Source: Alphaproteobacteria bacterium
GTDB taxonomy: Bacteria > Pseudomonadota > Alphaproteobacteria > Rs-D84
DNA length: 64,000 nucleotides
Assembly (NCBI GenBank): GCA_017546265.1
Contig: JAFYXG010000003.1
Coordinates: forward strand, 4,920-68,919
Direction: 5' to 3'
In this document: positions 3,126-48,522 of the stretch, one piece after another
Layout: each line of letters opens with the position of its first letter
How positions within the stretch are numbered: the stretch's first letter is position 1
The notes under the pieces: generated by a model
What the model was told of the DNA's origin: nothing
The model's database searches: none
Seen by the model: only the letters and a program-made list of their open reading frames with translations
Translations under genes and position numbers: made by a program

Positions 3126-3192
3126 ATGGGTAATCGTTCCTGTAATCTTGATGATGGAAACATGTTATTATTGAGCGTAAAGGAGAGAAAAA

Positions 3193-3669: not shown

Positions 3670-3671
3670 AC

Positions 3672-3702
3672 AAAAAAAATCCCGCAATCGCGGGATTTAT
3701 AT
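3672..3702. terminator. Bidirectional terminator (tspO / ftsB-like convergent pair)
   Basis: A8-TCCCGC-AATC-GCGGGA-TTT. Confidence 0.75.
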
Positions 3703-18212: not shown

Positions 18213-18224
18213 AAGGAGTAAAAA

Positions 18225-19524: not shown

Positions 19525-19623
19525 ATGAAAAGAGTTTTGTTCTTTGTGGTTTGGTTTTTCTTTTGGCCGATATTGTTGTGGTTTTATATCTTTGGTTTGG
19601 TTTATGAACGTTGGTTCGGGTAA
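19525..19623 (+). CDS. Candidate 32-aa hydrophobic peptide (MKRVLFFVVWFFFWPILLWFYIFGLVYERWFG)
   Basis: AAAGGAG (19511-19517) lies 7 nt before the ATG, the frame is in phase to TAA 19621-19623, and there is a single predicted TM helix. It is absent from the ORF track because it is too short. Confidence 0.3.
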   Translation: MKRVLFFVVWFFFWPILLWFYIFGLVYERWFG

Positions 19624-20553
19624 ATGTATTTAAGTTAAAGTAATACTGTTAAAGTAATGGATAATATTTTGTTATTACAATTATAAACGTTTTTGCGTGT
19701 TGTGTGGTGGTTGGTGTTTTTTTGAATAAAAATGCCCAAAATGTCAAAAATACCCAAAAAATGTGTTTTTTTGCCCTGCTCTGAGCCAAAAAACGAAAAA
19801 AAATGGCGGATTTCTGCGGGTTTGCGGCGAAAAAATGACTGGTGGGGCGGTGTTTTTTTACTTTTTTTGATGGGGTGGGCCGATTTTTGTAAAGAAATAA
19901 ATAAAAAACCTGAGGACATCGCAGACAATGGCGAGCATCAGGTTTTTTCAAGGTGTAATTGGCCAGTTTTATGCAAAACCAATTCTACGCATTGGTGGCC
20001 TGTGTTTCAGTCGTCCAACAATGGGGGCTTGATGGGTAAAAGTATATGTGTGCGGGGCTGAAAAGTCAAGATAAGGTTTTGTGTTAAAATAATATTTTAT
20101 CTGTTTGTTATTACGTTGAAATGTTGTTTGAAAAAAAGTTCCCTGGAATCCACCGGCTGGAAACTAATTTTATCGTGATGGTGTTGGAACGGTAAAACTG
20201 GATAAACGAGCGATAAAAGATAGTGCTGCACACGGAATTGGGAAAGAAAAGGTTGCTGCATTTCAGGCAGTGCCAGAAGTTATAAAAATGGCTTGATTTT
20301 TGACGAACAAACACAGTGGAAAGGCAGAAACTATGACAGCGTATCATTTATAGCACCAATTACAATAAATGGAGAACGGTATGCTTGCGAAGTTATCGTA
20401 AAGAAAAGTGTAGAACAAAATCGTTTTTACTTACACGAAGTAGAGATACAAGAAAAACTAGCAGATGTATTCAACGGTTCATTTTCCACAACCGCTGAAT
20501 CTGCTAGTTCTAAGTTAAGTATAGCCAAGAAATGGGAACAAGTCAAGACAACC

Positions 20554-20580
20554 AGTCAAATAAAAAGCACACAGAACAGG
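20554..20580 (+). repeat. 27-nt exact direct repeat, copy 1 (AGTCAAATAAAAAGCACACAGAACAGG)
   Basis: Identical to 21866-21892. Both encode SQIKSTQNR at module boundaries of the polyvalent pseudogene. Confidence 0.85.
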
Positions 20581-21865
20581 TTTAATCCAGTCCTACACGG
20601 CGAAAAAACAAGCAAATAAGGACGGTAATAATCGCCTAGGCAAGAAAGGTATATTCAACGATGACGATTTGTATTATCAGGCATTAAAAGAACAAAATCC
20701 TGATTTATTTGACGGCGACCACTGCACCAGCAAGAGTTTAACAGCAGTCCTGATGTCTAGAATGAATCAGTTTGATAACACAATTGACACACAGGTTCTA
20801 GAACATACAGACCTTGCAGACGAAAACGCACGTCTTGACGAAGTAAATCCTGAATATACAGGGGAAACAATCAACATAGACGGCAAAGAACGCACAGTAT
20901 ATAACAGCAATGGGGAAAGAATAGCAAAATCAGAACCTGCCCTGCGTAATTTCTGGAATTGGTTTGGAGATAGTAAGGTTGTTGATGATAATGGCAGACC
21001 GTTGGTTGTGTATCATGGAACACCCAGCGGGAATTTTGATACATTTATAAAAGATTCTTTCTTTACTGACGATACAGACCAAGCACGTGGTTATGCAGAA
21101 ATAAAATATAATACCATTGCACCCAAAGGACAGGTGTTTAGTGTTTATTTGAAAATGTCCAATCCATTTGTGTTTGATGCCAAGGGGCATTTTTGGAACG
21201 CACTTGATTATAAAGGCAAGAATGTTGATGGGGAAAAGCTTGCTAAAACAGCAAAAAAAGGCGGTTATGACGGTGTTATTATACAAAATGTAAAAGACCC
21301 AGCACAGCCGTGGAGTTTTGTGAAAAACACGACAGATTTTATTGTTTTTGAACAACCTAAATTTGCACCAACGGCACAGGAAAAAGAAACGTTTTTATCT
21401 GATCTGAAAAACAAGCAAATTATTCGGTTGGGTAAATTACCATCTGTATATGTGAATCTTGATTGGGAAAGTGCGGAAGTAAAAACCAATAAATCTGTTA
21501 TTATAAAAGATACCCAGACAAAACATAACGTCCCGATGGAAGTTGTAGAACGATTGCCTGAGTTATATAGCGACCCATTGTTGGTATTTGAATCCGCAAC
21601 GCAACCTGATAGATTGGTCGCAGTTATAGATGCAAAGGACAAATCGGGGAATCAAATAATAGTGGCTTTATCGCCCGCTCAAAAAGGTTATCATTTTATC
21701 CCAAGTTTTTATGGTAAAGATGACTTTGATAGTTTTGTCCAAAACAATATAGACAACGGCAGATTAAAATATATCAAAAATAGCGAAGTTTGGGACACTC
21801 TCCAATTGAGGCCTCTAAAACTTCGCTATACAGATAAGATAAAACAGAAAACAGACATTGTCAAC

Positions 21866-21892
21866 AGTCAAATAAAAAGCACACAGAACAGG
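21866..21892 (+). repeat. 27-nt exact direct repeat, copy 2
   Basis: See copy 1. Confidence 0.85.
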
Positions 21893-22029
21893 GGGACATT
21901 CAGTTCTGATACTGGAAATGTTTACCACCAACGCACGCAAGCGAACGGATACTATGATGCAGAGTTAAAGGTTATTGTTCTGGGCAGAAATATGAATACA
22001 ATGACCCTGTACCACGAAATTTTAGATTT

Positions 22030-22326
22030 TTATCTGCGTTTTTGCAGGTTGTTGATTTTTTTTCGGGTACGTTTGGCATCGTTATATGCATCGGTTGCAG
22101 AATTAAAACTCATTTGTGCCAGTATGATAAATAACATACCAAAGTATGCCGGGGCAACCCAGGAATCTTCGGCAGTGTTTTGTGATGCGGCATGGTAAAT
22201 ACTGTTTATAATTTCTGCGATTGATGCAAGAGTGCAACCATAGCCGGAGATATTAAAGATTTTGCCCTGGATTGTTTGATGGCGCAATTGTCGTTTCAGT
22301 ATGTCGATTTTATCTTTGTTGTTCAT
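22030..22326 (-). CDS. Hypothetical small membrane protein (98 aa from ATG 22326)
   Basis: MNNKDKIDILKRQL..., one TM segment (WVAPAYFGMLFIILAQMSF), and a basic tail. The longer listed start (22452) would overlap the upstream gene. Confidence 0.4.
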   Translation of the reverse strand: MNNKDKIDILKRQLRHQTIQGKIFNISGYGCTLASIAEIINSIYHAASQNTAEDSWVAPAYFGMLFIILAQMSFNSATDAYNDAKRTRKKINNLQKRR

Positions 22327-31745: not shown

Positions 31746-31772
31746 AAAACGCCGTTTTGGCGTTTTTTTTTT
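31746..31772. terminator. Bidirectional terminator (lpxB / 868-aa gene)
   Basis: AAAAAACGCC-GTTTT-GGCGTT-T9. Confidence 0.8.
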
Positions 31773-34377
31773 ATATGCCTGGCTTATATGTTGTTATTTG
31801 CACCCCATCTATTAGGCACTTCGTTTGGCCATTATTATCGGTTTTTGTGCTGTTGGTTCCGTATGGGCATACCTGGTTATCTTTTGTAATCCATTTTTGT
31901 GTACACCATGCCTTGTCACTGTATTTTTCAGACATGTTTTCGGTGTCTTCTGACGGTCGAACCATATCGGGGTTGGTATTCAGGTATTTGCATTCGATGT
32001 CTTCGGCATAAACAGGGATTGTTATTTGATTTGCATCTTTTCCCTCTTGGTTTTCGCATATGTACTGAGAACCGGTGTTGTTTTTACACAGGTATTGTCC
32101 CGCGTCATTTAATAGCGGTTGTGTTGATGGGGACATTATTACAGGTATGGCAGCAACGCAGTTTGCAGATTTGCCCCATTTGCTGCGGCGAGCACCGTTT
32201 TCCCAGCAAGAACATGCACCCCATGATTGTGTGTCCACCATGGTTCTGTAATCGCGTGGACACATGTCTTCGTTTTCAACTACGTTGTATTCAGTGTTTG
32301 TTTGGTTGTATCTGCAAAAGTCTTCTTTAACATATTCGCCTGAAATAATCTTTTGATATGCCACAAAGCGGCCCTGCAGGTTAGCACATTGGGTGGACAG
32401 TTGTGAGAGTACCTGGTTATAAACCTCGGTTGCGACACCCGTTGCACGCAGTTCACGTTCGTTGTCTTTAAGGCCGTATTGGGTACCCGCGGCGTCCATA
32501 TAATCCATGCCGCCGAACACCTCTTCAATCAGGTCTTTGTCATTGCATGCCGCAACGGTGGTTAATTGTTCAGCACACTTTGATACGTATTTGCCGGCGG
32601 TGTCATACAATGTAAACCAGTCTGGGGCGTGGCCCGTTGTAAACAGGCCGCTGTATGGATAGTAGAAGTTTTCATAATTTGTGCCGCCGTATTTATCAAA
32701 ACATTGTTTTGCAACCGCACGACACGCGGTTTTTTTGTCTGTTTCTGTGTGGTTTGTGATATAGTCTGCAATTATATTGCCATTAAACATGTTATCGCAT
32801 GATGTTACATATTCCTGGCACATGGTGGCATTTAATATAATTTTGTCCGGTTGCAGAATAACCGCGGATTCCGAGCTTAACCCCGCCATGGCCGCCGTTA
32901 TTGCCGCATCCCCGTTCATATAGCAGGCTGTAATATAGTCAAAACAGCCCTGTTTAATTTGGGCGACTTTATCTTTTTGCGAATAATAGATTGCCAGCAT
33001 CGCTTTGTCCAGGTATTCAGACCATACAAAGTCGGACTGTTCTACGCACTTGTCCAGTGCGGGTTCGGCAAACTTTTTTACACGTGATTCAAAATTGTAT
33101 ACGAAATTGCGATTGCTGGGGTTTTTGGACAGCTGTTGGTCGGCGGCCTCGACCCCATCGCTGAACACCAGCATGTGTTCCAGTTGATAAAAGTTTTCTA
33201 TGCCGGTAATTGGTGCACCAGTAGAAATGTCAATGAATTCACCGTTGTCCAGGCATTTGTGATAGTTGGCACCGCAGACCTCTTCACTAAGGATTGCCTG
33301 TTCTACTTCGTTAATACAGGTTGTGACATCGGACGAGTTGTGTTTCTGACGGTTTTCTATGCGGGCCAAATCCAACATGGCACCACCTTCGCGGATGGCG
33401 GATTTTAATTGCTTTTGTGTGTTTTCAATTGCAGTTTGGACCGTGTTGCAGTCCTGTTCAATTGCCATCAGATATGCAGTGATGGCACGTTGCAGTGACG
33501 CGTCATTACAGTCTGCACGAACCGCCTGGCGGCACTGGGGGTAAACCGCGTTGTACAGTGCGTTGCCGTTATAGGCGGCAATGGCCTGGCCTACATCGGT
33601 CATGCCAAACGCGTTAACGGTGTCAAATGCAATGTTTATGCTGTTCAAATCGGCGTATTTACCGCTGACCGTGCTGTCTTCGCCACGTATAGAGTTCATA
33701 ATGGCGTTCAATAATGCCTTGGACGCGGAATTGTCGTCTGTGAATGCCTTTTCCCCCTCGGTTTCCTGACGCATGGCGGCGGCCTGGGCGGCGGTCATAC
33801 CAACTGTGTCCAGGTTTTCTGTAAATACAGTCAATTGTTCACCCGCATCTTGCAGTACATCGCGAACCTCGGTCAATTTAAAAACACGGTCGTTGCATGA
33901 ACAGCGGCGATAGTCATCGTTTTTAAGTGTGCAAAATTGATCCATACATGAAAAATATGTGTTCTTGCAACGTTCGTATTCGGCCCCCGTGCGGGTGTTC
34001 GATAGCACTGTGGTGTCGGCGGTCGCAGTACGTGCAGAAATTACGTTTGTTGGTTCGCGTTTGGATGTTGTTTTGGTCGCACTGCGTGCAGATGTGCTGC
34101 GTGTGTTTTTTTTATCTTTTGTTGTTGTTTCGTGTGTAACCGTATTTGTGGCGTTGCGTGATGTGGTTGTGGCGGTGCGTGATGTGGTTGTTGCAGTGCG
34201 AGAATTTAGCGTTGTTGTACGTGGTTTTGTCGTGCGTACAACATTAGTTGCCGTACGCGATTGTGTTGTGTCACTGTCCGGTTTTGTGCGTGAAATGGCC
34301 GTGCCATCACGAACAGCCGCGTTGGCAAAACCAACGCAGACCAGCAAATTTGTAATTAAAACCAGAATTTTATTCAT
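31771..34377 (-). CDS. Large secreted Cys-rich protein, family A (R-[ST]-A-T repeats + CMDQFC core), paralog of 56372-58810
   Basis: Signal peptide MNKILVLITNLLVCVGFANA. A Thr/Arg low-complexity region (SRTATTTSRTATTTSRNAT) precedes YERCKNTYFSCMDQFCTLKNDDYRRCSCNDRV... It is collinear with the 812-aa ORF over roughly 500 aa. Confidence 0.8.
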   Translation of the reverse strand: MNKILVLITNLLVCVGFANAAVRDGTAISRTKPDSDTTQSRTATNVVRTTKPRTTTLNSRTATTTSRTATTTSRNATNTVTHETTTKDKKNTRSTSARSATKTTSKREPTNVISARTATADTTVLSNTRTGAEYERCKNTYFSCMDQFCTLKNDDYRRCSCNDRVFKLTEVRDVLQDAGEQLTVFTENLDTVGMTAAQAAAMRQETEGEKAFTDDNSASKALLNAIMNSIRGEDSTVSGKYADLNSINIAFDTVNAFGMTDVGQAIAAYNGNALYNAVYPQCRQAVRADCNDASLQRAITAYLMAIEQDCNTVQTAIENTQKQLKSAIREGGAMLDLARIENRQKHNSSDVTTCINEVEQAILSEEVCGANYHKCLDNGEFIDISTGAPITGIENFYQLEHMLVFSDGVEAADQQLSKNPSNRNFVYNFESRVKKFAEPALDKCVEQSDFVWSEYLDKAMLAIYYSQKDKVAQIKQGCFDYITACYMNGDAAITAAMAGLSSESAVILQPDKIILNATMCQEYVTSCDNMFNGNIIADYITNHTETDKKTACRAVAKQCFDKYGGTNYENFYYPYSGLFTTGHAPDWFTLYDTAGKYVSKCAEQLTTVAACNDKDLIEEVFGGMDYMDAAGTQYGLKDNERELRATGVATEVYNQVLSQLSTQCANLQGRFVAYQKIISGEYVKEDFCRYNQTNTEYNVVENEDMCPRDYRTMVDTQSWGACSCWENGARRSKWGKSANCVAAIPVIMSPSTQPLLNDAGQYLCKNNTGSQYICENQEGKDANQITIPVYAEDIECKYLNTNPDMVRPSEDTENMSEKYSDKAWCTQKWITKDNQVCPYGTNSTKTDNNGQTKCLIDGVQITTYKPGI

Positions 34378-34473
34378 CTCTGGTGTAAAGTTTAGCAAAA
34401 ATATCAAAAATTACGCAAGTGAATAATAAAATACGTATGTGCATATTTTTTCGGATTTTTTGTTTTTTTCTTG

Positions 34474-34807: not shown

Positions 34808-34830
34808 TGCCGACATTTGTCGGTTTTTTT
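34808..34830 (+). terminator. Terminator after the tRNA cluster
   Basis: CCGAC-ATTT-GTCGG followed by T7. Confidence 0.7.
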
Positions 34831-36694
34831 AATCGTGTTCGTTTGATGTTGGGATGGTATGATTGTGCATGTTTGATGTGTTTAGTAGTCTGGCTGAACC
34901 TGCCCGAAATTTTTCTGCGTTTGTTGTTTTTTTATAACCCAGTTGTTGCATGATGTTGTCTGGAATGTCGTATGTTTGGGGTGGATTTGAAATAGATAAT
35001 ATGCGATTTATAAACATCAACCCGTGTTGTGATTGTGTGTAGTCTACTGCTGCGTGGTTAGAGTTGACACCATATATGTGTGTTATTTTTAGGTCTGGTG
35101 CCATGGCGTCCATAATTTCACGCCATTGTGCATCCTGGTCGTCAATCAAAACCATTTTGTCGCCCACGATCATATATCTGGCAACGATGGGGTTGTTGTG
35201 TGGTGATATGGCGGTTTCGTGAAATGATGTTTTTGCTGCTGCGTTGGTTTCGTGTTTTAAGTGCCGTTTGTCCTTTAGGTCTTCTAGTCCGCGGTCGGTG
35301 GTCATAATGTTGCGTTTGCTGTTCTGAAAAACGGTAACAAAACCAACGGTATAGTTGTTTACGCTGAGCAGATATTCGGTGTTCATGGTTCGACCTGCAA
35401 CATAGTGTTGGTTCGTTGGTGCAGTGGCAAAGCCGGTTGCATCGGTTGCATTGGTTGTGGCATATGGCAGTCCTGTGCGACCTGGTCGCCATGTTGGGGT
35501 GGCGTACGAAGATGATGGGTCGCTGGTTATAAAGGTTTGACCACGAAACAAGTATTGTGGGGATTCGGTATTAGAATAGCGTTCCCGAAATGTTTCAAGT
35601 GTTATGGTGTTTGGACCGTTTAATTTTTGTTGTATCAGGGGGAGTATGTTGGCCTGGGGTAGCTTGGTGGACCGAGATGGTTTGGGGTTAATCTGTGAAT
35701 ATGTGGCAGGTTTGATGAAGCCCTCGAATTGTGCACCGTGTTCGGCCAAGTATTGCATCAGTGTTAATATGTTTTGTCTGGCATGTTGTGGTGAATAAAA
35801 AGGTGTGATAAGTTCCAGGCATTTGTGGCCTAGGATGGTTCTGGCGGGGCGTACGATGTATTGTGATGCATCGTATCCTGTGTGCAATCCTGCATGTTTT
35901 AATAAATCTGTGAGTTGTTTTTCTGTTATGCCGGTTATGATTTGGAAAAATGAGACGGGTTCGGTTAAGCCCTGCATATTTATCATTGGTGGTGTGTTCT
36001 TTCGCAGATCTGTGCGAGTGTCGTATGTGTGTAACCACGCCCCTACTTCGGTATGCATATCGTTTGAATATGTGGTGTATGATTGTGTAAATGTGTTTTT
36101 GAGTTTAGTAATTTCTGCCACTTTTTCATCTTTTGCTCTTGTTAATGAACGTAGTTCTGATTGGTGTGAAACAGAATTGATGTTCGAATCAGTTGGATGT
36201 GCGATGCCTGCCTGGGACATCAGTTGACATAGCTCATTGTGCAGCTTGGTTATTTGCTGTTCTTTTCTGTTGAACGAGAGTTTTGCAAAAAAACCAAGCC
36301 GATTTCTAGTACGAGTTAATAGTTTTGAAAGATTGTGAAAATCAGCAGTTATATATGCTTGGGGTATGCTCTCAGGGAAAAAACTTGAAAATACTTTGAA
36401 CTTTTGTTCGATTTGCGGAATTAGTTTTTGGCGTTCCTGAATGTCTTGCAGTTGTTGTTGTGTGTTGTCTATTTTTGTTTGGATTTGATTCAGTTCTGTT
36501 TGCAGCTTGCGTATCTTGTCTGTAATTGGTTTTATATATTTGTCAAAATCGTTTTGATATTTGGTGACGATTTCTTGGATGACAGCATTACTGTCAATGA
36601 CAGGTGCAACTAACAGTTTTTTGAAATTATATTTATGAGTCTGCCCTGTAAGTTTTTTTGCTGCTTCTAGATCTAGTTTTAATTCCGTATCCAT
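34829..36694 (-). CDS. Hypothetical 621-aa cytoplasmic-type protein (N-terminal coiled coil), no recognisable family
   Basis: ATG 36694 (MDTELKLDLEAAKK) and a coiled coil (IRKLQTELNQIQTKIDNTQQQLQDIQERQ). It has no signal peptide and is wedged between tRNA genes. Confidence 0.7.
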   Translation of the reverse strand: MDTELKLDLEAAKKLTGQTHKYNFKKLLVAPVIDSNAVIQEIVTKYQNDFDKYIKPITDKIRKLQTELNQIQTKIDNTQQQLQDIQERQKLIPQIEQKFKVFSSFFPESIPQAYITADFHNLSKLLTRTRNRLGFFAKLSFNRKEQQITKLHNELCQLMSQAGIAHPTDSNINSVSHQSELRSLTRAKDEKVAEITKLKNTFTQSYTTYSNDMHTEVGAWLHTYDTRTDLRKNTPPMINMQGLTEPVSFFQIITGITEKQLTDLLKHAGLHTGYDASQYIVRPARTILGHKCLELITPFYSPQHARQNILTLMQYLAEHGAQFEGFIKPATYSQINPKPSRSTKLPQANILPLIQQKLNGPNTITLETFRERYSNTESPQYLFRGQTFITSDPSSSYATPTWRPGRTGLPYATTNATDATGFATAPTNQHYVAGRTMNTEYLLSVNNYTVGFVTVFQNSKRNIMTTDRGLEDLKDKRHLKHETNAAAKTSFHETAISPHNNPIVARYMIVGDKMVLIDDQDAQWREIMDAMAPDLKITHIYGVNSNHAAVDYTQSQHGLMFINRILSISNPPQTYDIPDNIMQQLGYKKTTNAEKFRAGSARLLNTSNMHNHTIPTSNEHD

Positions 36695-36740
36695 ATTGGG
36701 GATTGTATCACATGGTAAAAGTACTTGCAAGATATAAGAT

Positions 36741-36769: not shown

Positions 36770-36846
36770 GGATGTGTAGCTCAGTTGGTTAGAGCGCTTC
36801 GTTCACATCGAAGAGGTCGTTGGTTCGAGTCCAATCACATCCACCA
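36770..36846 (+). tRNA. tRNA-Val (anticodon CAC)
   Basis: Acceptor GGATGTG/CACATCC, anticodon loop TTCACAT, T-loop TTCGAGT, encoded CCA. Confidence 0.92.
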
Positions 36847-36849: not shown

Positions 36850-36878
36850 AATAACCCGCGATTTCGCGGGTGTTTTTG
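36850..36878. terminator. Bidirectional terminator (tRNA-Val / 105-aa gene)
   Basis: CCCGCG-ATTT-CGCGGG flanked by A- and T-runs. Confidence 0.75.
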
Positions 36879-36882: not shown

Positions 36883-37200
36883 TTATCTTAATCCCTTGGC
36901 ACGACAGCATGCAGAAGCCGCGGATTTCCAATCTGAATAGGTCTTGGACGGGGAACGTAAATCACGCCATGGCTGCCAGCCATTACATTTCTTGGAGGTG
37001 CCGCTGCCGGTGCATTTCGCATAACGGCGAAGTGTACAGGTTTGATTTGATACCTTGCCCGTGTCGGTTGTGCATTTTACTGTGACGTTTTGATTTTTCG
37101 CCTCGTTCTGGCCAAGTTCCTTGGACGATAATACCTGGTATGCGTTGGCGGTGTAAACCGCAGTCAGCATGATTATAAATGCAGATAACAGTTTTCTCAT
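36883..37200 (-). CDS. Small secreted 6-Cys protein (105 aa)
   Basis: Signal peptide MRKLLSAFIIMLTAVYTANA. The mature part contains six Cys (KCTTD...QTCTL...AKCTG...KKCNGW...ACCRAKG). It is the last gene of the A24-peptidase operon. Confidence 0.65.
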   Translation of the reverse strand: MRKLLSAFIIMLTAVYTANAYQVLSSKELGQNEAKNQNVTVKCTTDTGKVSNQTCTLRRYAKCTGSGTSKKCNGWQPWRDLRSPSKTYSDWKSAASACCRAKGLR

Positions 37201-37265
37201 TTCTTTTTCCCCCTGGTGTTTATATTTGGATTATAAAAAATATTTTCGGGTTTGACAATGGGAAT

Positions 37266-38897
37266 TTAATTTGTTGTCCATGGTGTGTCGTTCATAATCA
37301 AATAATACAGTTCTGTGTTGGCTGTACTGGGATTGCGTAAAATCGGACGAACAACGAAAATGTCGACATTGCATGGGGTGGTGGTGTCGTTTTGGATTTC
37401 AGTTAAATCCTGATGAAATTTTGCGGCAAAATCCATCGCCTGAAGAAAGGCGGCATCATCGTCTGCTGGATTTGTGGAATCGCCCATCCACATCAGCCAC
37501 ATGCCATAGTTTACAACATTTTCCTGGCCCACCAGGTCGTCTGCCGATAATAACAACAGTGGTGCAAAATTAGCCCCGTTGGTAAATTCATCGGTGGTGT
37601 TGTCGGTAAAGTCATACATGTCGCCCGCAAATTTAAGTATGCCCGCGGCCAACCCTGCCCCCGCCCCTACTTTGGCAACCATGCCCGCGTTGCGAAGTGT
37701 TGAATCAAACAGCCAGTTGCGAATCTGGGATGAAAATCCACTGGCACGGCCCAATTTTCGGGCACGTTTAATCATGTTGTTTCCCGTCATGGTGGATTTG
37801 GTTGCACGGGCCACGCGGGCGATTATATTTCCACGCTGGGCCAAACGCAGCCCATGACGATATTTGTTCAGGTCTGAAAATGTCTTGGTTGCATCGCGAT
37901 ATTTTCGTACATCTTCACCCGATTCCATTGTCCGAATTGTGTTATTTAATTTGTTTAATTCTGCGGTTTTGTCGGCGATTTTGACTGCATCTTTGGTGCG
38001 GTCCAGTGCTTTTATTTCATCGGTCAGACGTTCTGCGTTTCTGGTTGCACGAATGTAATCGGCAACCGCATCGGTTTTAGCTAATGTTTTTATGGTTGTT
38101 GACAGACCACGCAGTGCACGTGATGCACGGGCGGCCTTGGTCGCACCCAAAACCGCAGCGTATCCGCCAGTTGTAGCAACAGTTAAAATTACGTCCAGTG
38201 CAACCTCGGAATAGCCCAGCCATTCCAGATTGCGATCGCCGGCAACGTAGTAATCGTTTGTGTCATCGTCCAAATTTACCGTTTGGGTTGCAGCACGGTT
38301 TATTGCGTAATTATCGTTTGCTAATGCTGTGCGATTGGTGCATGTGCCACCACGTGGATACAGGGTGTCAATGTTATCCCGAATGTATTCCAATGAAACG
38401 GTATTGTTCTTGTCTGGGCCAACAAATTCGGATAATGAACCATGTTCGACAACCATAATTCCGTACCAGGCTGGGTCTGTGTTTGTCCATATTGTTCCAT
38501 CCGTTGTGTCGCCAATCCGCGGGTTTATATTCAGGTCATCTGTACTGCGTTTTTCTGATAAAGACAGGCGTTGTCGCAATAGTTTTGGTGATGTTTCATA
38601 GTTTACAGTAATATTGCGACCGCCCGGGAAAGTGTATGTGATTGGTGAAAATATAATTGGTGTGGATTCCGGTGCGTTTGCAATTTCGGGACATGATAAT
38701 ACACCGGTCAGAACGTTGCCATCGGCAAAGACGGTGCGTATCCATTCGCCGATTGTTGATTCTGAATCAGATTCGGATACCTTTGTCGCGTTCGTGGCCA
38801 GGGCGTCTGAAAATGCCCGCGATGCACATTGTGTTTCCGCCGCATGGGCAGAATAAACGAAGAGTATGGTAAATGTTAGTACAAATGTTTTTAACAT
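37266..38897 (-). CDS. Large secreted protein, family B paralog (543 aa)
   Basis: Signal peptide MLKTFVLTFTILFVYSAHA. It shares with the 684-aa neighbour WYGIMVVEHGSLSEF / WYGILVVKAGSLDEY, an Ala/Gly-rich helical middle, and C-terminal GQENVVNYGMW...PCNVDIFVVRP / GRENVVSHGAW...QCDVDVYVVQP. Confidence 0.8.
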   Translation of the reverse strand: MLKTFVLTFTILFVYSAHAAETQCASRAFSDALATNATKVSESDSESTIGEWIRTVFADGNVLTGVLSCPEIANAPESTPIIFSPITYTFPGGRNITVNYETSPKLLRQRLSLSEKRSTDDLNINPRIGDTTDGTIWTNTDPAWYGIMVVEHGSLSEFVGPDKNNTVSLEYIRDNIDTLYPRGGTCTNRTALANDNYAINRAATQTVNLDDDTNDYYVAGDRNLEWLGYSEVALDVILTVATTGGYAAVLGATKAARASRALRGLSTTIKTLAKTDAVADYIRATRNAERLTDEIKALDRTKDAVKIADKTAELNKLNNTIRTMESGEDVRKYRDATKTFSDLNKYRHGLRLAQRGNIIARVARATKSTMTGNNMIKRARKLGRASGFSSQIRNWLFDSTLRNAGMVAKVGAGAGLAAGILKFAGDMYDFTDNTTDEFTNGANFAPLLLLSADDLVGQENVVNYGMWLMWMGDSTNPADDDAAFLQAMDFAAKFHQDLTEIQNDTTTPCNVDIFVVRPILRNPSTANTELYYLIMNDTPWTTN

Positions 38898-38900
38898 TAG

Positions 38901-40955
38901 TTATTTGCTTCTGACCTGGAATGCAGGAGTAATGTTATTTTGTATAATGTACCACATGGCCTTGGCACCTGGCAGCTTTTTTGGGTTGCTGATGGCAGGT
39001 TGAACAACGTAAACGTCAACGTCACATTGTGGGTCGGTGGCATTGACTTGATTTATTGCTTCTGTTAATTCTTCGGCAAAACGTGTTGCCTCGTTTAGGG
39101 CATCGTCTTCGTTTTGTGTGCCGATTGTTTCAAATTGAATCCATGCACCATGCGATACAACATTCTCGCGTCCTTCTTCATTATCATCAGATAACAGCCC
39201 AAAACTGTTAAAACTGACATCGCCTGTTGTTGGATCTTTTAATGCTGCGGTACTGTATCCAAAAGATTTTAATAATTCGCGACCGAAATAGTTCGCACCA
39301 ACCGCACCGCCTGCAATTGCCAGGGTTTTAAAACGCTGTGACCATGTTGCACCGGGGCCCAATGCGTTTGCTGTTTTTGGAACTATGTTTTTTGCACCAG
39401 ATGCAACCAATTTCCACGGTCTCCATAGTGATGATGTCCATGATGCAGGTTTTGCTGTTGCAATAGCGGATTCTAGTGCTTTGCCGATATTGTTTAATGA
39501 TTTTGCAGTTGTGCCCTTTTTTACTGTGATACCTGCGTCTGCCAGTGCGTCTATTGCCTGGGTGCGTGTAGTTGCGTCCTTGCCTGCTTTTGCTGCTTTC
39601 GCTGCGTCTGCAGCTTTTTTTAATTTTGTGGTATTTTTTGTTAGCTTTATACTAGTGATGGCTTTTGATGATGCTTGTATTGTTTTTACACCTGCATTGG
39701 ATATTTGTACTGCTGCCTTGGCAGCAGAGGCCTCTGCACTTATTCCAAATGTTGCCAGTGCCAATGCGACTTCACCAGCAATGGCGGCCCAGCCCCAATA
39801 CACATCTTGGCCATCGTAAACGTAAAAATCACTGCCTGACCAAAAGCTATCGTTTTGATTCATTACCGTATGCGTGGCACGATTTATGACATCGTTATCA
39901 TGAGCCATGTGATTGCTGTGCGTACAGGCACGTGCCATACCGAGTGCTTTGTCAGAATTGCCTGGAAAAAACATATCTCTGTGCGATTTCATATATTCTG
40001 TTGATATTATTGGTAAATCTTTTTTTGCGTATTCATCTAAACTGCCAGCCTTGACAACCAATATACCATACCAAGGTAATAATGCCTCGAATTCATCGGG
40101 TATGTTTTCTGTGATTAGTGCAGGCTCGGTTTGGTCCTTTTGGGAGTCTGATGTGGCAGTGGTTGTTTTAGGTGCTTTGTTTTGGTTTTTTGTTAGGCTT
40201 TGGATTGTCTGCTGGCGGGTCAGATAGTCGTCCTGGCTTTCCACTGTGATCGGTTTATAGGCACTTTTATCTTTGTATGATTCATAACCCGCGGCAGAGT
40301 TCGCCATGCGTTCACTGAAGGATAAATCTGCGTAGGTGGTCGGAAATGATGCACGTTCTATGTGCTCGTTGCCCGAACCGTTCATGGACTGTAATTCCTG
40401 CAATTCTAATTTACGTTCAATCACGTCCGTTTGCCAATCCATCAGTTGGATTTTATATGGATTTTTTATCTGAGCATCCGATTCCGTTGTCCCTGCGTTC
40501 GGTGTTGTCGCATGTGGAAATGCGGTCACACCAGTTGGCATTGCGTTGCCATATTTTTGAACGTATTCATCAAACGCAGTGTCAATATAACCCGCACATG
40601 CCGTTGCATAATTGCCGTTTGGTATGCGTGATAATTGCAGCATAACCGTGGGACGGACGTCCGATAACTGGGATTCAATACAATTGTTCTGCATGGCACA
40701 GGTTGTGGCAATCAGCCCAGATACAACACGTTGACAATCGCCCGTTTCTACGTCTGGGCCGTCTGCGTAAACAGGTGTTGGCATGCGTTGATTATATGGT
40801 GCGTTTGGTGACCAATATGGGTTAGATGAATAATTCTGGACGTTTTGGATTACACCATATTTGGAAAATGGTGTGTCTGCAGCATGTGTTAGGCCACAGA
40901 ATATTAAAAACTGGGTGCAAAATATGCTTAATAATGACTGAATACGTATTCTCAT
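38901..40955 (-). CDS. Large secreted protein, family B paralog (684 aa)
   Basis: Signal peptide MRIRIQSLLSIFCTQFLIFCGLTHA. It is 3 nt upstream of the 543-aa paralog; shared motifs are listed there. Confidence 0.8.
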   Translation of the reverse strand: MRIRIQSLLSIFCTQFLIFCGLTHAADTPFSKYGVIQNVQNYSSNPYWSPNAPYNQRMPTPVYADGPDVETGDCQRVVSGLIATTCAMQNNCIESQLSDVRPTVMLQLSRIPNGNYATACAGYIDTAFDEYVQKYGNAMPTGVTAFPHATTPNAGTTESDAQIKNPYKIQLMDWQTDVIERKLELQELQSMNGSGNEHIERASFPTTYADLSFSERMANSAAGYESYKDKSAYKPITVESQDDYLTRQQTIQSLTKNQNKAPKTTTATSDSQKDQTEPALITENIPDEFEALLPWYGILVVKAGSLDEYAKKDLPIISTEYMKSHRDMFFPGNSDKALGMARACTHSNHMAHDNDVINRATHTVMNQNDSFWSGSDFYVYDGQDVYWGWAAIAGEVALALATFGISAEASAAKAAVQISNAGVKTIQASSKAITSIKLTKNTTKLKKAADAAKAAKAGKDATTRTQAIDALADAGITVKKGTTAKSLNNIGKALESAIATAKPASWTSSLWRPWKLVASGAKNIVPKTANALGPGATWSQRFKTLAIAGGAVGANYFGRELLKSFGYSTAALKDPTTGDVSFNSFGLLSDDNEEGRENVVSHGAWIQFETIGTQNEDDALNEATRFAEELTEAINQVNATDPQCDVDVYVVQPAISNPKKLPGAKAMWYIIQNNITPAFQVRSK

Positions 40956-40976
40956 TTCCGGGTCCCTGTGCGTATA

Positions 40977-41438
40977 TTATATCAAAAACGTCATGCCAAT
41001 CAAAGATAAAAATCCACCCAGTAAAAAGAATGGTGCAAATGGAATGTATTTTTGTTTTTGAATACGTGACCATATCAGACCTGTTATGCATGAAATTACC
41101 AATGCAAATGACAGACCCGTTATGCCCAGCCATATGCCCCCAACCCCAATCAGTTTTATGTCGCCCATGCCAATTGGCGCGGTTCCCGATTTGCGTGTTA
41201 TGTGTTCAAAAACATAACCCAATGTGGCCGCCATGATATACCCAAATGTCCCACCAATAATGCCAGAATATATGTCAATCGGATATGAAAAATATCCAGT
41301 CAGTATCAGTTCCATCAGCATCAGTGGAAATAAATATACGTCTGGTATAATGCGTTGTCGAAAATCTGAAATAGATATCCGGACCGACAAATATGCCGAA
41401 ATCAACAATAAAATAGTAAAAAAGATGTATGAATTCAT
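40977..41438 (-). CDS. Type IV prepilin peptidase-like aspartic protease (A24 family, TadV/CpaA-size, no methyltransferase domain)
   Basis: 153 aa and polytopic. The two catalytic-Asp motifs are SDFRQRIIPD and GMGDIKLIG. Confidence 0.8.
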   Translation of the reverse strand: MNSYIFFTILLLISAYLSVRISISDFRQRIIPDVYLFPLMLMELILTGYFSYPIDIYSGIIGGTFGYIMAATLGYVFEHITRKSGTAPIGMGDIKLIGVGGIWLGITGLSFALVISCITGLIWSRIQKQKYIPFAPFFLLGGFLSLIGMTFLI

Positions 41439-41511
41439 ATTTTTCTTCCTTGCCTTTCGAATCGGAACTGTGCTATGCTGTTATTATAAAGTATAACAGG
41501 GGTTTTGTAAA

Positions 41512-42129
41512 ATGAGTAAAGGCTGGGATAATATCGCACTGAAAAAATTAAAAGCACTGACCGGTAAAGGGTTATCTACATCCGAAATCGGTAAGCGGTT
41601 GGGGATGTCAAAAAATGCCATTGTGGGTAAGTTAAATCGCCTGGGGTGGAATGCCAAGGCCACTAAGGAAGATGATAAAAAAGCCGCAACTGCAAAAAAA
41701 GGTTCAGTCGCTAAGGCAGATACCAAGGCAGAAAGTGTAAAAAAATCTGTGACCAAAGGAACGACAACTAAAAAAACGGAAGCTGTCAAAAAAGATACTG
41801 TAAAAACTAAATCAGGTGATACCGTAAAAGAGGTCGCCGGGACTAAGGTTGCTGAAAAAAATACAAAAAAAACAAAGACGGCAGAAAAAGTGCCTGCCGG
41901 AACAAAAGTTAGTGCCAAAGTAAGTGCAAAAAACTTGGCGGTGCATCAAAGAATTGTTCAGCACGCATTGGAAATGGCAAATCTGAAAAGTAATCAGTGT
42001 CGTTGGCCAATTGGCGACCCGGATTCTGAACATTTTCATTTCTGTGGGGAAACGGTCTTTGTCGGTAAACCGTATTGCTATGAACACTGTAAGCAGGCTT
42101 ACCAGTTCGCACCACCTAAGAAAAAATAA
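41512..42129 (+). CDS. gcrA: GcrA cell-cycle regulator
   Basis: N-terminus WDNIALKKLKALTGKGLSTSEIGKRLGMSKNAIVGKLNRLGW, a Lys-rich linker, and C-terminus CRWPIGDPDSEHFHFCGETVFVGKPYCYEHCKQAY. Confidence 0.9.
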   Translation: MSKGWDNIALKKLKALTGKGLSTSEIGKRLGMSKNAIVGKLNRLGWNAKATKEDDKKAATAKKGSVAKADTKAESVKKSVTKGTTTKKTEAVKKDTVKTKSGDTVKEVAGTKVAEKNTKKTKTAEKVPAGTKVSAKVSAKNLAVHQRIVQHALEMANLKSNQCRWPIGDPDSEHFHFCGETVFVGKPYCYEHCKQAYQFAPPKKK

Positions 42130-42156: not shown

Positions 42157-44286
42157 ATGCCAAACGAGAGAGAGAATTTTTATCAGCCATTGACAAGCAA
42201 GGACTTTGAAATTGCAGGGGTGATGTTTCGTGCCTTTTACGATGCAGATGATAAGTTGGTCTTTGTCATGGATTTGACAACAGATGATGTAAAACCAAAT
42301 GTTTTATTGGTTATAAATCCCATTGGTAATCGTAAATGGGATGATATTTTAATGAATGATTTTGGGGTCGATTTGGAAACTGTGCGGCCAAAAAAGGATA
42401 ATAAATATCAAAAACTGGATATAGAATATGCAGGATTGGCGGACTATGATGCCGTAATATCGGCGGTGCAAAGTGGTGAAAATACTGATGTGGCGGTGGC
42501 AAAACTTATGCGTTTCCGTGCAGAGGCTGCCCAGCGGGCTGCATATGAACGGTTGGCTGCGGCGGAACTGACCGCGGAAAAGGCACGCGAAACAATCGAA
42601 AAATCAACGGACAGTGTCGCAGAACTGCAGGATAAGTTAAAAAAATTAAAGGCTAAACTGGCAGAATATCGCCGTAATGTTGGTAAAGAACCAACCAAAC
42701 AATCGGCAGCAAAAATTCTGAAAACAGAATCTCAAATAGATGCGACAAACGATAAGTTGGTGCGTGCAAAAAAACGGCTGGATAACGCCAAGACTCGTTT
42801 GACCGCGGCCGAAGATGATAAAGAACAGGCAATTTATATTTTAAGATTGCTGGATGATAAAGATTCTGAATATACTGATGATGAACAAGTGGCGGATGTG
42901 CCAATGGTGGCACCTGAATTCAAAGTGATGCAGTCGCAACCAGAAAATGGTGATGTTATGGTTGTGGAACCTGCCCCAGTGCCCGCAACACTTCATTCAA
43001 CAGATAATGATACAAACATAGAAGCAAAGGCAACCGAGATGGCAGACGAAGAAGTTAAACCATTGTTTGATAAAAATCCAAATATTTTGGACGAAGAAAT
43101 TGCATTTAAACCAATTGACTTTGATGTGCCTGTCAATAAAACAGAGCCCGTTGAACCGGTTGCAGAGCCGGTGCATGATGTTGCACCATTGTCCTTTACG
43201 CCGCCCGTTGCAGTACGGCCCGTTGTTGATGGTATCGAGGTTGATGATGTTTTTTCGCCGGATTCTGCTGAGCCCGTTGGTGGTTCAATGCTGGACAGTT
43301 TGACACCCGTTGCGTTGCCGTCTGAACAGATTGATTCAGAGTTGCTGTCAACAGTGCAGTCAACACCAGATTTTGTGCCAGAGCCAGTTATGCCCCACCC
43401 CGTTGCGGCGGCAGATGTGCCAAGTGTAAATCCACAACCAATGCCAGAAATCGCACCAGCACCGGTGGATTCTGGGTTCAGACCCGTCTCGCCAATCACA
43501 GGTATGTCAACATCTGAAACCGTTGTTGCAAGTCGTAAGCCAACAATGTTGTACTATGTGATGTTGGTTGTGCTGATTGCTTTGTCGATATTTACGTTGT
43601 GGATGTACCAAAGCAAGGTTGTTAATGATGCTAATCCTGAATTGGGGGCAAAAACTGCACCTGTGGAACAGCCGGTTGTTGTTGAAGAAATTGTCGCAGA
43701 AGAAGTTGAACCAGAACCTGTGGTTATGGTGGAAACTGAAGAACCTGTGGTGTCTGTACCGGTTGTTGATACCGCTGAAATTGTGGAAGATGTAGAACCG
43801 GAACCCGTGGTGGTAACACCTGCCCAGCCCGTAGCGTCAATTCCTGAGGTCCAACCAGAACCTGTGGTTGTGACGCCGGACCCTGTTGTGGAAGAGCCTG
43901 TTAAAAAAATACCAACCGAAGCAGAAATATTGGCATCAAAGCCGTCTTATAATGTTTCTCAAAATGAAAAAATGTTCGTTGCTGATGAAAATTATGAAAC
44001 GGATGACGCTCAGGAAGAAGTTATACAGGAAATTCCAGAAATGGTGGTGAATAAACCTGCTGTGACGGTTGGCGGTGGTGCACCTGTTGCCCAACAACAG
44101 CTCGCCCCTGCACCTGAGATATATGCTGAAGATTTTGTCACAGAAGAAGTTGTGGAAACATGTGCTGATGGTAATTTGCCCGATGCAGATGGTTGCTGTG
44201 CTGGGGAATTCCTGGCCGATATGGGGGGCGGTGAGTACGCATGTTGTGCAGAAGAAACGGGGGAATGTTTCCCGCCTTTGTTCTGA
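42157..44286 (+). CDS. Acidic Pro/Val/Glu-rich membrane-spanning protein with coiled coil and C-terminal Cys cluster (709 aa)
   Basis: Coiled coil (aa about 110-230), TM segment MLYYVMLVVLIALSIFTLWMY, EPEPVVV repeats, and C-terminus CADGNLPDADGCCAGEFLADMGGGEYACCAEETGEC. Confidence 0.7.
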   Translation: MPNERENFYQPLTSKDFEIAGVMFRAFYDADDKLVFVMDLTTDDVKPNVLLVINPIGNRKWDDILMNDFGVDLETVRPKKDNKYQKLDIEYAGLADYDAVISAVQSGENTDVAVAKLMRFRAEAAQRAAYERLAAAELTAEKARETIEKSTDSVAELQDKLKKLKAKLAEYRRNVGKEPTKQSAAKILKTESQIDATNDKLVRAKKRLDNAKTRLTAAEDDKEQAIYILRLLDDKDSEYTDDEQVADVPMVAPEFKVMQSQPENGDVMVVEPAPVPATLHSTDNDTNIEAKATEMADEEVKPLFDKNPNILDEEIAFKPIDFDVPVNKTEPVEPVAEPVHDVAPLSFTPPVAVRPVVDGIEVDDVFSPDSAEPVGGSMLDSLTPVALPSEQIDSELLSTVQSTPDFVPEPVMPHPVAAADVPSVNPQPMPEIAPAPVDSGFRPVSPITGMSTSETVVASRKPTMLYYVMLVVLIALSIFTLWMYQSKVVNDANPELGAKTAPVEQPVVVEEIVAEEVEPEPVVMVETEEPVVSVPVVDTAEIVEDVEPEPVVVTPAQPVASIPEVQPEPVVVTPDPVVEEPVKKIPTEAEILASKPSYNVSQNEKMFVADENYETDDAQEEVIQEIPEMVVNKPAVTVGGGAPVAQQQLAPAPEIYAEDFVTEEVVETCADGNLPDADGCCAGEFLADMGGGEYACCAEETGECFPPLF

Positions 44287-46836: not shown

Positions 46837-48522
46837 ATGAAAAGCATTATTCGTGGTTTGATATCTGTTTTTTTTATGGCCGTTTTATGTGTCGGCCCTG
46901 GTGCGTATGGGGAGGATTATGGAACGGTGAAATGTGAGGAATATTTGAATATTTTGGAGCAGTGTGGTGTGGGGATTTTGGACAACTTTCAGCAAAAGAT
47001 TGAAGAACTTGGGTGTTCTTCAGATAAATGTTTTGTAGTAAAGCCTGAGCAATATTGTGATGGTATGGTGAGGGAATTGTGGGAGGCCGCTGAGCCGTAT
47101 TGCGATAATAGTGGGCTGGATGATATGTATAATTTATGCCCGGGGGATACGTATTATTATGAATTGCCGGGGGGGGATAGTTATGAGTGTAGAACGTGTA
47201 GTCTTTATGCACAAAGAGATGGTGTGGTGTATGGAACGCATTATCCGTGTGATTCTGAAAGATTACAGAAAGGAGAGTGTAGCATAGATTGGTGTCATAC
47301 AACATGCCCGTCTGGACAAACGGGTGTAAGGTATTATGGGAATGTGGGAGAAGGCGGTTGTACGTCCAGCGGAGGTGGGGATATAAATCCGGGAGTGGAT
47401 TATGACCATCAGATAGCACCGGGGTGTTCTGCAATGGATACAATGAATTGTTCCCATTTTTTGGATCATATTGTTGGTGTAGTTAACAATTATAATAATG
47501 AGCCTGAATTGTGGGGTCATTATGAAGTACCAGATCCAGACGCAATAGAAGAGGACATAATGCAGGAGTGTGGTTTTTCTCTCCCAAGAAATTATGCTGG
47601 TAAAGAAACGAATGAGTGGGAGACGGAAGGAATTTGGTGTTCTGCACAGGTTTGTACAGACCATCAGGTTCTGTGGTATACTATTGCTACTTGGCCGGTT
47701 GCATGGCAGTGTGTGAAGAAGTCTTGTAGTGAAATGTTGAAATCTGACACTGGTTTAGATTGGAAAGGTACGGCATATGGAAATAATTGTTCGGAGTGTG
47801 AAGCAACCTGTCCCGATGGTGAAGCCAGCAGTGGGGTCGAGAGAACTGGCCAGACAACATTTTATCACGGTGCACGTTGTAATGTGACTTCTACGGGTAC
47901 ATGTGGTTATAAGTGTATGAAGGACTTTTACGGTACTGCGACCAGTAAATCTACTGGCTGTACGGCATGTCCGGCGAATGCAACATGTGCCGGTGGAAAT
48001 AACAGTACGTTTGTGTGTGCGGATGGGTATTATAAAGCGACAGCCAATGCCACGGGATGTTCAAAATGTCCAGATAATGCAACGTGTACAACAGAAAATG
48101 GGATACAGTGTCATTCGGGGTATTTTTACAAGAATGAAAATGGCAATGTGACCTGTCCGGCATGCCCGTCACACGGAAAATGTGAAGGGGGACAAAAATC
48201 GTTTGGTTGCGATAATCCCGCTTGGTACAAGGTTAATGAATCTGCAACAGCCTGTACACAGTGTCCAACCGGGGCAGAATGTAAGGATTTGATGCCAGTT
48301 ACGTGTGCAAAGGGGTATTATCAGGGGGGCAGTACCCCGCCATGTACGGTATGTCCGGGTGGTGGTACAACCAGTGGAAAAAATGCGGACAGTATAACAG
48401 ACTGCTATGTGGCGGTGAGTGCTGGTACGGGGCAGACCGATTATACCTGGGATGATGCAGATGATGACAATAACGTTTTTGGTTCATATCAGTGTACAGT
48501 AGATGCGTGGTATGTGCAGTAG
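46837..48522 (+). CDS. Secreted Cys-rich protein with eukaryote-like CxxC / GCC2-GCC3 (ephrin-receptor/furin-like) repeats (561 aa)
   Basis: Signal peptide MKSIIRGLISVFFMAVLCVGPGAYG. The C-terminal half carries tandem modules: GCTACPANATCAGGNNSTFVCADGYY / GCSKCPDNATCTTENGIQCHSGYFY / TCPACPSHGKCEGG / ACTQCPTGAECKD / CAKGYYQGGSTPPCTVCPGGGTTSGKNADSITDCY. Confidence 0.8.
   Translation: MKSIIRGLISVFFMAVLCVGPGAYGEDYGTVKCEEYLNILEQCGVGILDNFQQKIEELGCSSDKCFVVKPEQYCDGMVRELWEAAEPYCDNSGLDDMYNLCPGDTYYYELPGGDSYECRTCSLYAQRDGVVYGTHYPCDSERLQKGECSIDWCHTTCPSGQTGVRYYGNVGEGGCTSSGGGDINPGVDYDHQIAPGCSAMDTMNCSHFLDHIVGVVNNYNNEPELWGHYEVPDPDAIEEDIMQECGFSLPRNYAGKETNEWETEGIWCSAQVCTDHQVLWYTIATWPVAWQCVKKSCSEMLKSDTGLDWKGTAYGNNCSECEATCPDGEASSGVERTGQTTFYHGARCNVTSTGTCGYKCMKDFYGTATSKSTGCTACPANATCAGGNNSTFVCADGYYKATANATGCSKCPDNATCTTENGIQCHSGYFYKNENGNVTCPACPSHGKCEGGQKSFGCDNPAWYKVNESATACTQCPTGAECKDLMPVTCAKGYYQGGSTPPCTVCPGGGTTSGKNADSITDCYVAVSAGTGQTDYTWDDADDDNNVFGSYQCTVDAWYVQ

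Follow-up and report, generated by a model that had tools for sequence, protein, structure and literature searches.

The question raised by this locus is why a prepilin peptidase gene should head an operon of exported proteins in a stretch of DNA that carries no pilus gene. The stretch (hereafter the window, 64,000 nucleotides in full) comes from Candidatus Enterousia, of the order Rs-D84 of gut Alphaproteobacteria, and the operon consists of four co-oriented minus-strand genes, A24, p684, p543 and p105, separated by successive gaps of 21, 3 and 65 nt. The original prediction, made from the letters of the window, had described these genes and gaps together with a hairpin terminator beside tRNA-Val, and the open reading frames (ORFs) and the hairpin were found as described. 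Our answer is a tentative one, held at somewhat less than even confidence: the operon would be a cell-cycle-timed, lineage-specific core envelope module of Rs-D84 in which the protease matures a co-encoded protein. The parts of the operon and its 3' end are listed below.

40977-41438, minus strand: A24-family GxGD aspartyl protease, 153 amino acids (aa), PF01478, about five hydrophobic segments
38901-40955, minus strand: p684, 684 aa, made up of an N-domain and a C-module cassette
40209-40955, minus strand: N-domain of p684 (aa 1 to about 249), with a Sec signal peptide, a 'IQNVQNYSSNPFW' segment and a three-helix core
38901-40208, minus strand: C-module cassette of p684, a paralogue of the p543 module in a variable slot
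37266-38897, minus strand: p543, the constant large protein, 543 aa, with a signal peptide, an N-terminal alpha/beta domain and the shared module
36883-37200, minus strand: p105, 105 aa, small, basic and exported, with six Cys
36854-36871, both strands: bidirectional intrinsic-terminator hairpin, 7-bp and GC-rich with a T-run, between p105 and tRNA-Val
36770-36846, plus strand: tRNA-Val, adjoining the 3' end of the operon

Synteny was examined in 83 fetched relative loci (L001-L083). A24, the N-domain, the slot, p543, in some loci a GH108 gene, p105 and then a tRNA cluster follow one another, with gcrA and p709 diverging from the head of A24, and this order and orientation is kept in nearly all 83 loci, the exceptions being L049 and L038. 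The A24 gene was present in 76 of the 83, the other seven being cut by a contig end. It was syntenic with family B, to which the large proteins belong, in all 76 loci having enough upstream sequence, which is the co-occurrence in relatives that the original prediction had proposed to check. Gap statistics were computed over 71 loci, and the medians are 23 nt from A24 to the N-domain, −4 from the N-domain to the cassette, 0 from the cassette to p543, −26 from p543 to the GH108 gene and approximately 65-66 nt from p543 to p105. For every operon gene with an orthologue in the close relatives, dN/dS was 0.05-0.23, showing that the ORFs are real genes under purifying selection, and the earlier description of an operon-like unit is upheld. 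That the genes form no functional unit, being instead independent lineage-specific envelope genes held together by the stability of gene order in reduced genomes, appears quite improbable. It is true that gcrA, p709 and often ThyA and p878 are syntenic too, and that the peptidase is linked to the other proteins by neither a common domain nor any known interaction. Against this, the block keeps its order and orientation outside the two exceptional loci while its flanks ThyA, p878 and p633 differ between loci in presence or orientation, stop and start codons of successive genes overlap or all but adjoin, and the cassette slot is precisely exchanged between the N-domain and p543, which implies selection to keep the cassette in that context.

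The operon had also been said to lie in a tRNA-flanked accessory position, and this part of the original prediction did not survive. The island hypothesis was rejected as GC content is flat across the locus (0.42-0.47), with no shift, and the tRNA neighbourhood is itself conserved, the downstream Val-Leu-Ala-Leu cluster being kept in nine of the ten loci scanned. The neighbours in the window are housekeeping genes (UvrA, transketolase, RF1, LeuRS, LpxA/B, ThyA, trigger factor, SecA, DnaE and RsmH). With both the block and the tRNA cluster conserved across the order, the operon is a core trait and not a tRNA-flanked accessory island. A phage origin was likewise rejected, p543 and the N-domain having no relatives in 2.9 million viral contigs.

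For p543, p684 and p105 there are hundreds of homologues, and of the named ones nearly all are 'hypothetical protein' entries from metagenome-assembled genomes (MAGs) of gut or rumen Alphaproteobacteria. A scan of one genome per species found 278 p543-encoding stretches in species-representative genomes from mammals, birds and other sources, the records of which are Candidatus Enterousia, uncultured Alphaproteobacteria or Proteobacteria, and a few 'Rickettsiales bacterium' MAGs; one p543-relative record is a circular chromosome of 958,618 bp. An exhaustive profile search for the p543 family returned only 155 clusters among 1.84 billion representative proteins, which indicates that the family is confined to this lineage, and no cluster of the window proteins carries a name. 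Genomes of Rs-D84 are 0.75-1.0 Mb in size and are without flagella, the TCA cycle, respiration, part of glycolysis and the standard transporters, and a partner-dependent life via hypothetical membrane proteins has been proposed for the order (PMC12306168).

One insertion into the tRNA cluster was observed in the window. The coiled-coil protein p633 (34829-36730, minus strand, 633 aa), for which there was no real family match, is encoded between tRNA-Val and Leu-Ala-Leu; a homologue (39-44% identity) occurs at the same place only in L011, L025 and L028, and the four tRNAs are contiguous in most relatives.

The case for cell-cycle timing comes from the region between the A24 gene and gcrA, for which the features are as follows, together with a second promoter-like site before p105.

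41512-42129, plus strand: gcrA (Pfam GcrA, 1.4e-29), head-to-head with the A24 gene
42157-44286, plus strand: p709, 27 nt downstream of gcrA and always linked to it
41483-41511, minus strand: promoter-like site before A24, TTTACA-17-TATAAT (11/12), inside the gcrA/A24 intergenic region
41458-41464, minus strand: GcrA box/CcrM site, CGATTCG on the operon strand and CGAATCG on the plus strand, about 25 nt upstream of the A24 ATG
37230-37258, minus strand: promoter-like site TTGTCA-17-TATAAT (11/12), in the 65-nt gap preceding p105

Across 73 species this intergenic region (41439-41511, 73 nt) hardly varies in length or sequence, unlike the proteins in those species, which are only 50-65% identical. 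GANTC was present in 75 of 75 orthologous intergenic regions against an expectation of 0.19, and the form C-GA[AT]TC-G, which reads as YGAKTCG on one of the two strands, in 73 of 73 loci; the sole difference between species is an A or a T at the central base, as expected for a methylation motif. The box lies at about +15 from the predicted A24 promoter start and at about −23 from a possible gcrA promoter, in its −35/−10 spacer. The GcrA box has the consensus YGAKTCK/YGAKTCG and acts, counted from the transcription start site (TSS), near −20 or −30 or between +5 and +30 (PMC4647560, PMC9976885), and the sequence at 41458-41464 agrees with this in context and in position, with TSS positions that are predicted. 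The likeness to the GcrA/CcrM promoters of Caulobacter and other Alphaproteobacteria described in those papers is that of a perfect YGAKTCG box at a permitted distance in every one of the 73 species, whereas here the box is known from sequence, the TSSs are predicted and ccrM was not seen in the 64-kb window. Taken together these features point to CcrM/GcrA, and hence cell-cycle, control of the operon, of gcrA or of both. The original prediction had read the locus as a self-contained secretion/maturation or toxin-like system; the conserved box, and gcrA lying head-to-head with the operon, instead favour a role in the envelope that is coupled to the cell cycle.

The first gene had been assigned to an A24 aspartic protease with both catalytic-Asp motifs, and this assignment is borne out. 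The protein matched PF01478 at 49.6 bits (gathering cut-off 26.5; E 5.8e-13) over profile positions 4-102 of 104, although it reached no NCBIfam model, and carries the motifs SDFRQRIIPD (D25) and GMGDIKL (G90-M-G92-D93). In an alignment of 57 sequences, the window protein and 56 orthologues, D25, R29-IIPD33 and G90-x-G92-D93-x-K-L are at least 95% conserved, and on this conservation the enzyme is almost certainly active. Five hydrophobic stretches (Kyte-Doolittle 1.4-2.1 over the 153 aa) make it polytopic as judged from hydropathy. It resembles TadV/CpaA/FppA (Tad, type IVc; MEROPS A24) in being a polytopic protein of about 150 aa without a methyltransferase domain, in having its first Asp in D-x5-IPD and its second in GxGD-x-KL, and in being encoded at the head of an operon for exported proteins. 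It was 28-32% identical to annotated A24/PilD/PppA genes, with best E values of 1e-6 to 1e-3 among 72,556 plasmid-collection records. A likeness to beta-secretase, from the single sequence searched against solved structures, was discarded as chance matches.

What sets the locus apart from Tad loci is the surroundings of the enzyme. All ORFs of at least 150 aa in the window were read, with Pfam applied to those not recognised, and no Flp, Tad, type IV pilus, type II secretion system or competence gene was found in the 64 kb, in agreement with what had been noticed at first. A scan for class III leaders (G/xxxxE plus a hydrophobic helix) at every possible ORF start in the window gave no match. 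No small ORF of the Flp/pilin subunit kind was called in L001-L003, and no T2SSE ATPase, T2SSF platform or secretin was found among the window ORFs or the Pfam matches around the operon in those three loci. Flp, TadE/F, TadA/CpaF, TadB/C and RcpA/CpaC are thus all missing from the 64 kb and from beside the operon in the 83 loci, where no pilus gene was found within 8-10 kb. Within the 64 kb no protein carries the class III signal peptide expected of an A24 substrate; p684, p543 and p105 have n-h-AXA Sec-type signal peptides as read from sequence, i.e. those of SPase I. The A24 peptidase is locally orphan, as had been claimed.

These results bear on the alternative that A24 is an ordinary TadV/CpaA-type prepilin peptidase, serving pilin genes elsewhere in the approximately 0.9-Mb genome, with the downstream genes unrelated to it. 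Its size, Pfam match and two catalytic Asp residues are typical of TadV/CpaA, and the absence of a prepilin-type leader from all of its neighbours is what this alternative would lead one to expect; other ultra-small partner-dependent bacteria are reported to rely on type IV pili (10.1101/2024.11.25.624915). We nevertheless regard it as unlikely, since the window and the surroundings of the operon in the 83 loci are without pilus genes, the A24 gene is never apart from the N-domain and p543 in 76 loci (the median gap being that of 23 nt), the protein is only around 30% identical to annotated prepilin peptidases and is reached by no NCBIfam model, and the published work on Rs-D84 genomes reports type IV pili in another lineage only (PMC12306168).

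The two large proteins had been described as diverged paralogues with unrelated N-terminal parts, and this is correct. Residues 94-537 of p543 align with residues 252-674 of p684 (BLASTP 8e-29, 27% identity over about 460 columns), giving a shared module of about 440 aa, and the parts N-terminal to it do not align. The module motifs quoted in the original prediction, WYGI[LM]VV, G[QR]ENVV and C.VD[IV][FY]VV[RQ]P, are invariant or nearly so in an alignment of 78 sequences. The module begins and ends with an acidic alpha/beta part; between the two lie, in order, hydrophobic segment 1, about 150 aa of basic helical sequence and the weak hydrophobic segment 2. The helical core has a net charge of +13 to +27. 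Its median charge in proteins of the p543 type is +20, between flanks of −8 and −17; for the C-module type the corresponding values are +17, −8 and −12. The hydropathy of segment 1 (median 1.8 and 1.5) is borderline for a transmembrane helix, and that of segment 2 (median 0.9) is too weak for one. One Cys on each side of the insertion (C186 and C509) is invariant in both paralogues, which fits both flanks lying outside the cytoplasm.

The AlphaFold2 (AF2) model of p543 is of moderate quality (predicted local distance difference test, pLDDT, 66; predicted template modelling score 0.58). In it the signal peptide is followed by an alpha/beta N-domain and an alpha/beta part; a hydrophobic stretch modelled with low confidence (224-262) comes next, then six to seven helices (249-412), another stretch of weak hydrophobicity and, at the C-terminus, a further alpha/beta part. 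Two arrangements are equally possible, one being an exported soluble or peripheral protein with a long basic helical arm inserted in a split alpha/beta body, and the other a hairpin-anchored membrane protein with a cytoplasmic basic loop. These proteins had been called secreted; they do have predicted Sec signal peptides, yet the borderline hydrophobic segments around the basic core make a membrane-anchored form equally possible. A topology with two transmembrane helices, attractive from the acidic/+20/acidic charges, was not adopted given the hydropathy of segment 2. Nor was a prepilin-like internal cleavage before segment 2 adopted; there is a conserved N-x-G there but no E at +5, and the C-module type does not share the pattern.

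Searches with these proteins gave little. The p543 model against PDB folds gave best matches of E 0.46 (helices of CdvB2/ESCRT-III) and E 1.8 (XaxA), both generic helical matches, and against BFVD a best E of 0.06 with a template modelling score of 0.09; the p543/C-module profile found nothing real among PDB sequences. The family libraries Pfam, NCBIfam, PHROGs and PADLOC were run on the four operon proteins and on p709, p633 and p878. There was no match to p543, the N-domain or p105 in these libraries or in PDB sequences, and besides A24 and GcrA the libraries returned only weak coiled-coil, signal-peptide and sub-threshold chance matches. The original prediction could assign the module to no known family, and this stands after library and profile searches and with a p543 model that matches no known fold; the 105-aa protein likewise belongs to no described family. 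Judged by these comparisons, the components of the operon other than the peptidase are far from every described family or system, and constitute three new protein families.

The N-domain is in most species a separate gene of about 300 aa. It has a three-helix core with four invariant Cys and the motif FPTT..D.SF.ERM..GY.PYK, and its AF2 model has a pLDDT of 71 overall and of about 95 at aa 70-135. Nothing significant was found for this model among known folds, a local resemblance to saposin A (E 1.9) being a lead only, and the N-domain profile found nothing real among PDB sequences. Its fusion to the cassette in p684 is real, as independent contigs encode full-length proteins that are 100% and 84% identical.

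The slot between the N-domain and p543 is where the relatives differ. The original prediction had treated duplicated secreted proteins as a feature of the system, but a second C-module gene is present in only 9 of 71 loci and the second copy is a swappable cassette. In the other loci the slot holds one of three other families, so that at least four unrelated cassettes occur. Cassette M1 (33 loci) has glycine-zipper-like hydrophobic segments and, in its C-terminal domain, nine or more invariant Cys; M2 (13 loci) has two hydrophobic segments separated by an Ala/Lys-rich helical region, and an acidic end rich in Cys; and M3 (9 loci) has Gly/Ala hydrophobic segments at its C-terminus. Gly/Ala-rich hydrophobic segments between Cys-containing parts are found in every cassette type. 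Hidden homology of M1, M2 and M3 to the C-module was rejected, with profile-profile probabilities of 9-22%. What had been taken for two paralogous large proteins is thus a constant p543 and one of several exchangeable cassettes, here fused to the N-domain.

The exchange can be seen at the DNA level. The window is about 80% identical to, and collinear with, its closest relatives L004 and L005 except at 38854-40209, a break that coincides exactly with the C-module cassette; with L006, which is more distant, collinearity is unbroken. The cassette protein is 76-77% identical to those of L003, L006 and L007, where the flanking genes are 48-64% identical. Recent transfer of the cassette and stronger constraint upon it are indistinguishable here as dS is saturated.

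Such a pattern is reminiscent of polymorphic effectors, and the alternative to be weighed is that the N-domain is a constant trafficking handle, that the cassettes (as membrane-active Gly-zipper proteins or the C-module) and the muramidase made of N-domain and GH108 are effectors directed at partner or competitor cells, and that p543, p105 and the protease are machinery for their export or activation. The N-domain is joined to the C-module, M1, M2, M3, GH108 or others by fusion or by a 4-nt overlap with sharp break points, so that one constant domain, fused or translationally coupled, goes with at least four unrelated cassettes and a peptidoglycan hydrolase. In addition, the closest relatives have different cassettes across sharp recombination boundaries, the C-module cassette is more alike between lineages than its flanks are, and glycine-rich hydrophobic hairpins are typical of membrane-inserting proteins. 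On the other side, there is no small variable immunity-type gene beside the cassettes, the gene after the cassette always being p543, and no Pfam toxin domain in any cassette; the only known toxin-type domain, GH108, is in a separate gene after p543 and is absent from this window. Where it could be measured, the selection on cassettes is purifying and not diversifying, nothing phage-borne or defence-related was found with PHROGs, PADLOC or the viral contigs, and a housekeeping role accords better with the conserved GcrA box and with the place of the locus in the core genome. We consider this alternative unlikely.

Polymorphic toxin and cassette loci include CdiA-CT/CdiI, Rhs and MafB. The locus is like these in its constant N-terminal part, variable C-terminal cassettes, sharp junctions, sharing across lineages and peptidoglycan-hydrolase cargo. 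It is unlike them in having no immunity genes, no nuclease, deaminase or ADP-ribosyltransferase-type domains and no type V, VI or VII secretion genes, and in being a core locus that is probably under a cell-cycle regulator.

Of the remaining products, p105 is the most conserved of the set, with 71-100% identity and a length that is almost always 105 aa. It had been described as a small secreted protein with six Cys, and all six are invariant in 40 homologues; its net charge is +13, and its profile had no PDB-sequence or Pfam match. Between p543 and p105, roughly a third of the loci have a gene for a GH108 + PG_binding_3 muramidase which overlaps the p543 stop by about 26 nt and carries the N-domain or the FPTT...ERM motif. 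Examples are given below; about 20 other loci have the gene, and this window has none.

L001, 11661-12749: GH108 muramidase gene
L014, 9655-10863: GH108 muramidase gene
L037, 6225-7907: GH108 muramidase gene

Muramidase-assisted export is known from TtsA-type proteins with GH108 and PG_binding_3 and from holin/endolysin-like 'type 10' secretion. About a third of the relatives resemble this in having the GH108 + PG_binding_3 gene within the operon and beside glycine-rich hydrophobic proteins, whereas the muramidase is absent here and from most species, and there is no recognisable holin or spanin.

How the cell-cycle-timed envelope module might work can now be set out. GcrA, acting on the methylated box, would switch the operon on at a set point of the cell cycle, and the products would assemble into a periplasmic or surface structure. 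In this structure p543 and p105 would be the constant scaffold, the N-domain would be a docking handle that carries the muramidase where one is present, and the cassette would be the variable, outward-facing or membrane-active part. The role of docking handle is suggested by the same domain or motif carrying the GH108 muramidase in about a third of species. The peptidase would mature at least one operon protein at a glycine-rich membrane-embedded segment and not at a classical prepilin leader. As bacteria with these reduced genomes have been proposed to depend on partners, the most plausible purpose of the structure would be attachment to, or exchange with, another cell.

A more specific form of this proposal is that the A24 enzyme has been recruited throughout the order to a non-pilus job, maturing Sec-exported proteins at internal glycine-rich hydrophobic hairpins, so as to build, in each cell cycle and timed by GcrA/CcrM, an envelope organelle not described before, with p543, p105 and the N-domain as its constant scaffold and an exchangeable cassette facing outward, for attachment to partner cells or metabolite uptake from them. 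We hold this form to be rather doubtful. GxGD proteases with non-pilin substrates do exist, namely presenilin and signal-peptide peptidase, and archaeal PibD, which acts on sugar-binding proteins. The enzyme here shares their clan and the GxGD motif, and glycine-rich, helix-destabilised membrane segments, of which all the co-encoded proteins contain candidates, suggest themselves as substrates; the difference is that the candidate segments are without G at −1 and E at +5, that segment 2 is too weakly hydrophobic, and that cleavage is here a proposal.

Several points weigh against the envelope module with its maturing protease. No operon protein has a recognisable A24 cleavage motif (G−1, E+5), and A24 enzymes cut N-in leaders at the cytoplasmic face. 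The weakness of segment 2, together with the very low AF2 confidence for segment 1, makes membrane embedding of the proposed substrates doubtful, and the AF2 models, of p543 as of the N-domain, yielded no fold clue. The target of the GcrA box may be gcrA itself and not the operon. We infer co-transcription from spacing alone, and the site at 37230-37258 may be an internal promoter that gives p105 a promoter of its own. Gene order is generally stable in reduced genomes, which makes synteny alone weaker evidence. Lastly, the inspection for pilus genes covered only the 64 kb and the syntenic loci, a point in favour of pilins elsewhere.

Rs-D84 and Enterousia are widespread in human and animal guts, have genomes of less than 1 Mb and are uncultured (PMC12306168). 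An operon that is kept by every member must be central to the biology of the lineage, and this one is tied to the gene of a cell-cycle regulator, codes for proteins not seen elsewhere and has one cassette that is swapped between species. If the reading is true, an A24 protease working without a type IV filament system would mean a wider substrate range for the family. The three families and the defined variable slot could serve as strain-typing markers.

Further observations were made on the neighbours of the operon. The protein p709, which is lineage-specific, has a coiled-coil N-terminal half, one strong transmembrane helix at aa 463-481, and a very acidic, Pro/Glu/Val-rich outer part with a C-terminal cluster of six Cys; it could be a polar or division scaffold. 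An 878-aa protein (31771-34407, minus strand) and an 812-aa protein (56372-58810, plus strand) are Cys-rich, exported paralogues (BLASTP 5e-57) with Thr/Ser/Arg-rich N-termini and no family match, the 878-aa type usually being found after the tRNA cluster in relatives. Further Cys-rich secreted proteins are encoded at 46837-48522 and 58828-60042.

GC skew is strongly and almost uniformly positive over the window (cumulative 0 to 5.5) and most genes are on the plus strand, which places the window on the leading strand of one replichore; the A24 operon is one of its few lagging-strand units. Two stretches are low in GC. The first (18000-22200, 0.38) encodes a 509-aa protein (20669-22198, plus strand) with MuF_C and ART-PolyVal domains, a fragment of a polyvalent protein of the phage or conjugative-element type that may be the remnant of a mobile element. 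The second (1-4000, 0.36-0.37) contains an AAA_15/AAA_21 (AbiEii/OLD-like) ATPase gene (1279-2607, minus strand) and two small unassigned ORFs, and may be a defence islet at the edge of the window. Finally, a 364-aa protein (16421-17515, minus strand) has an autotransporter beta-domain (PF03797, 1e-9), which shows that this reduced genome does encode a type V path to the cell surface.

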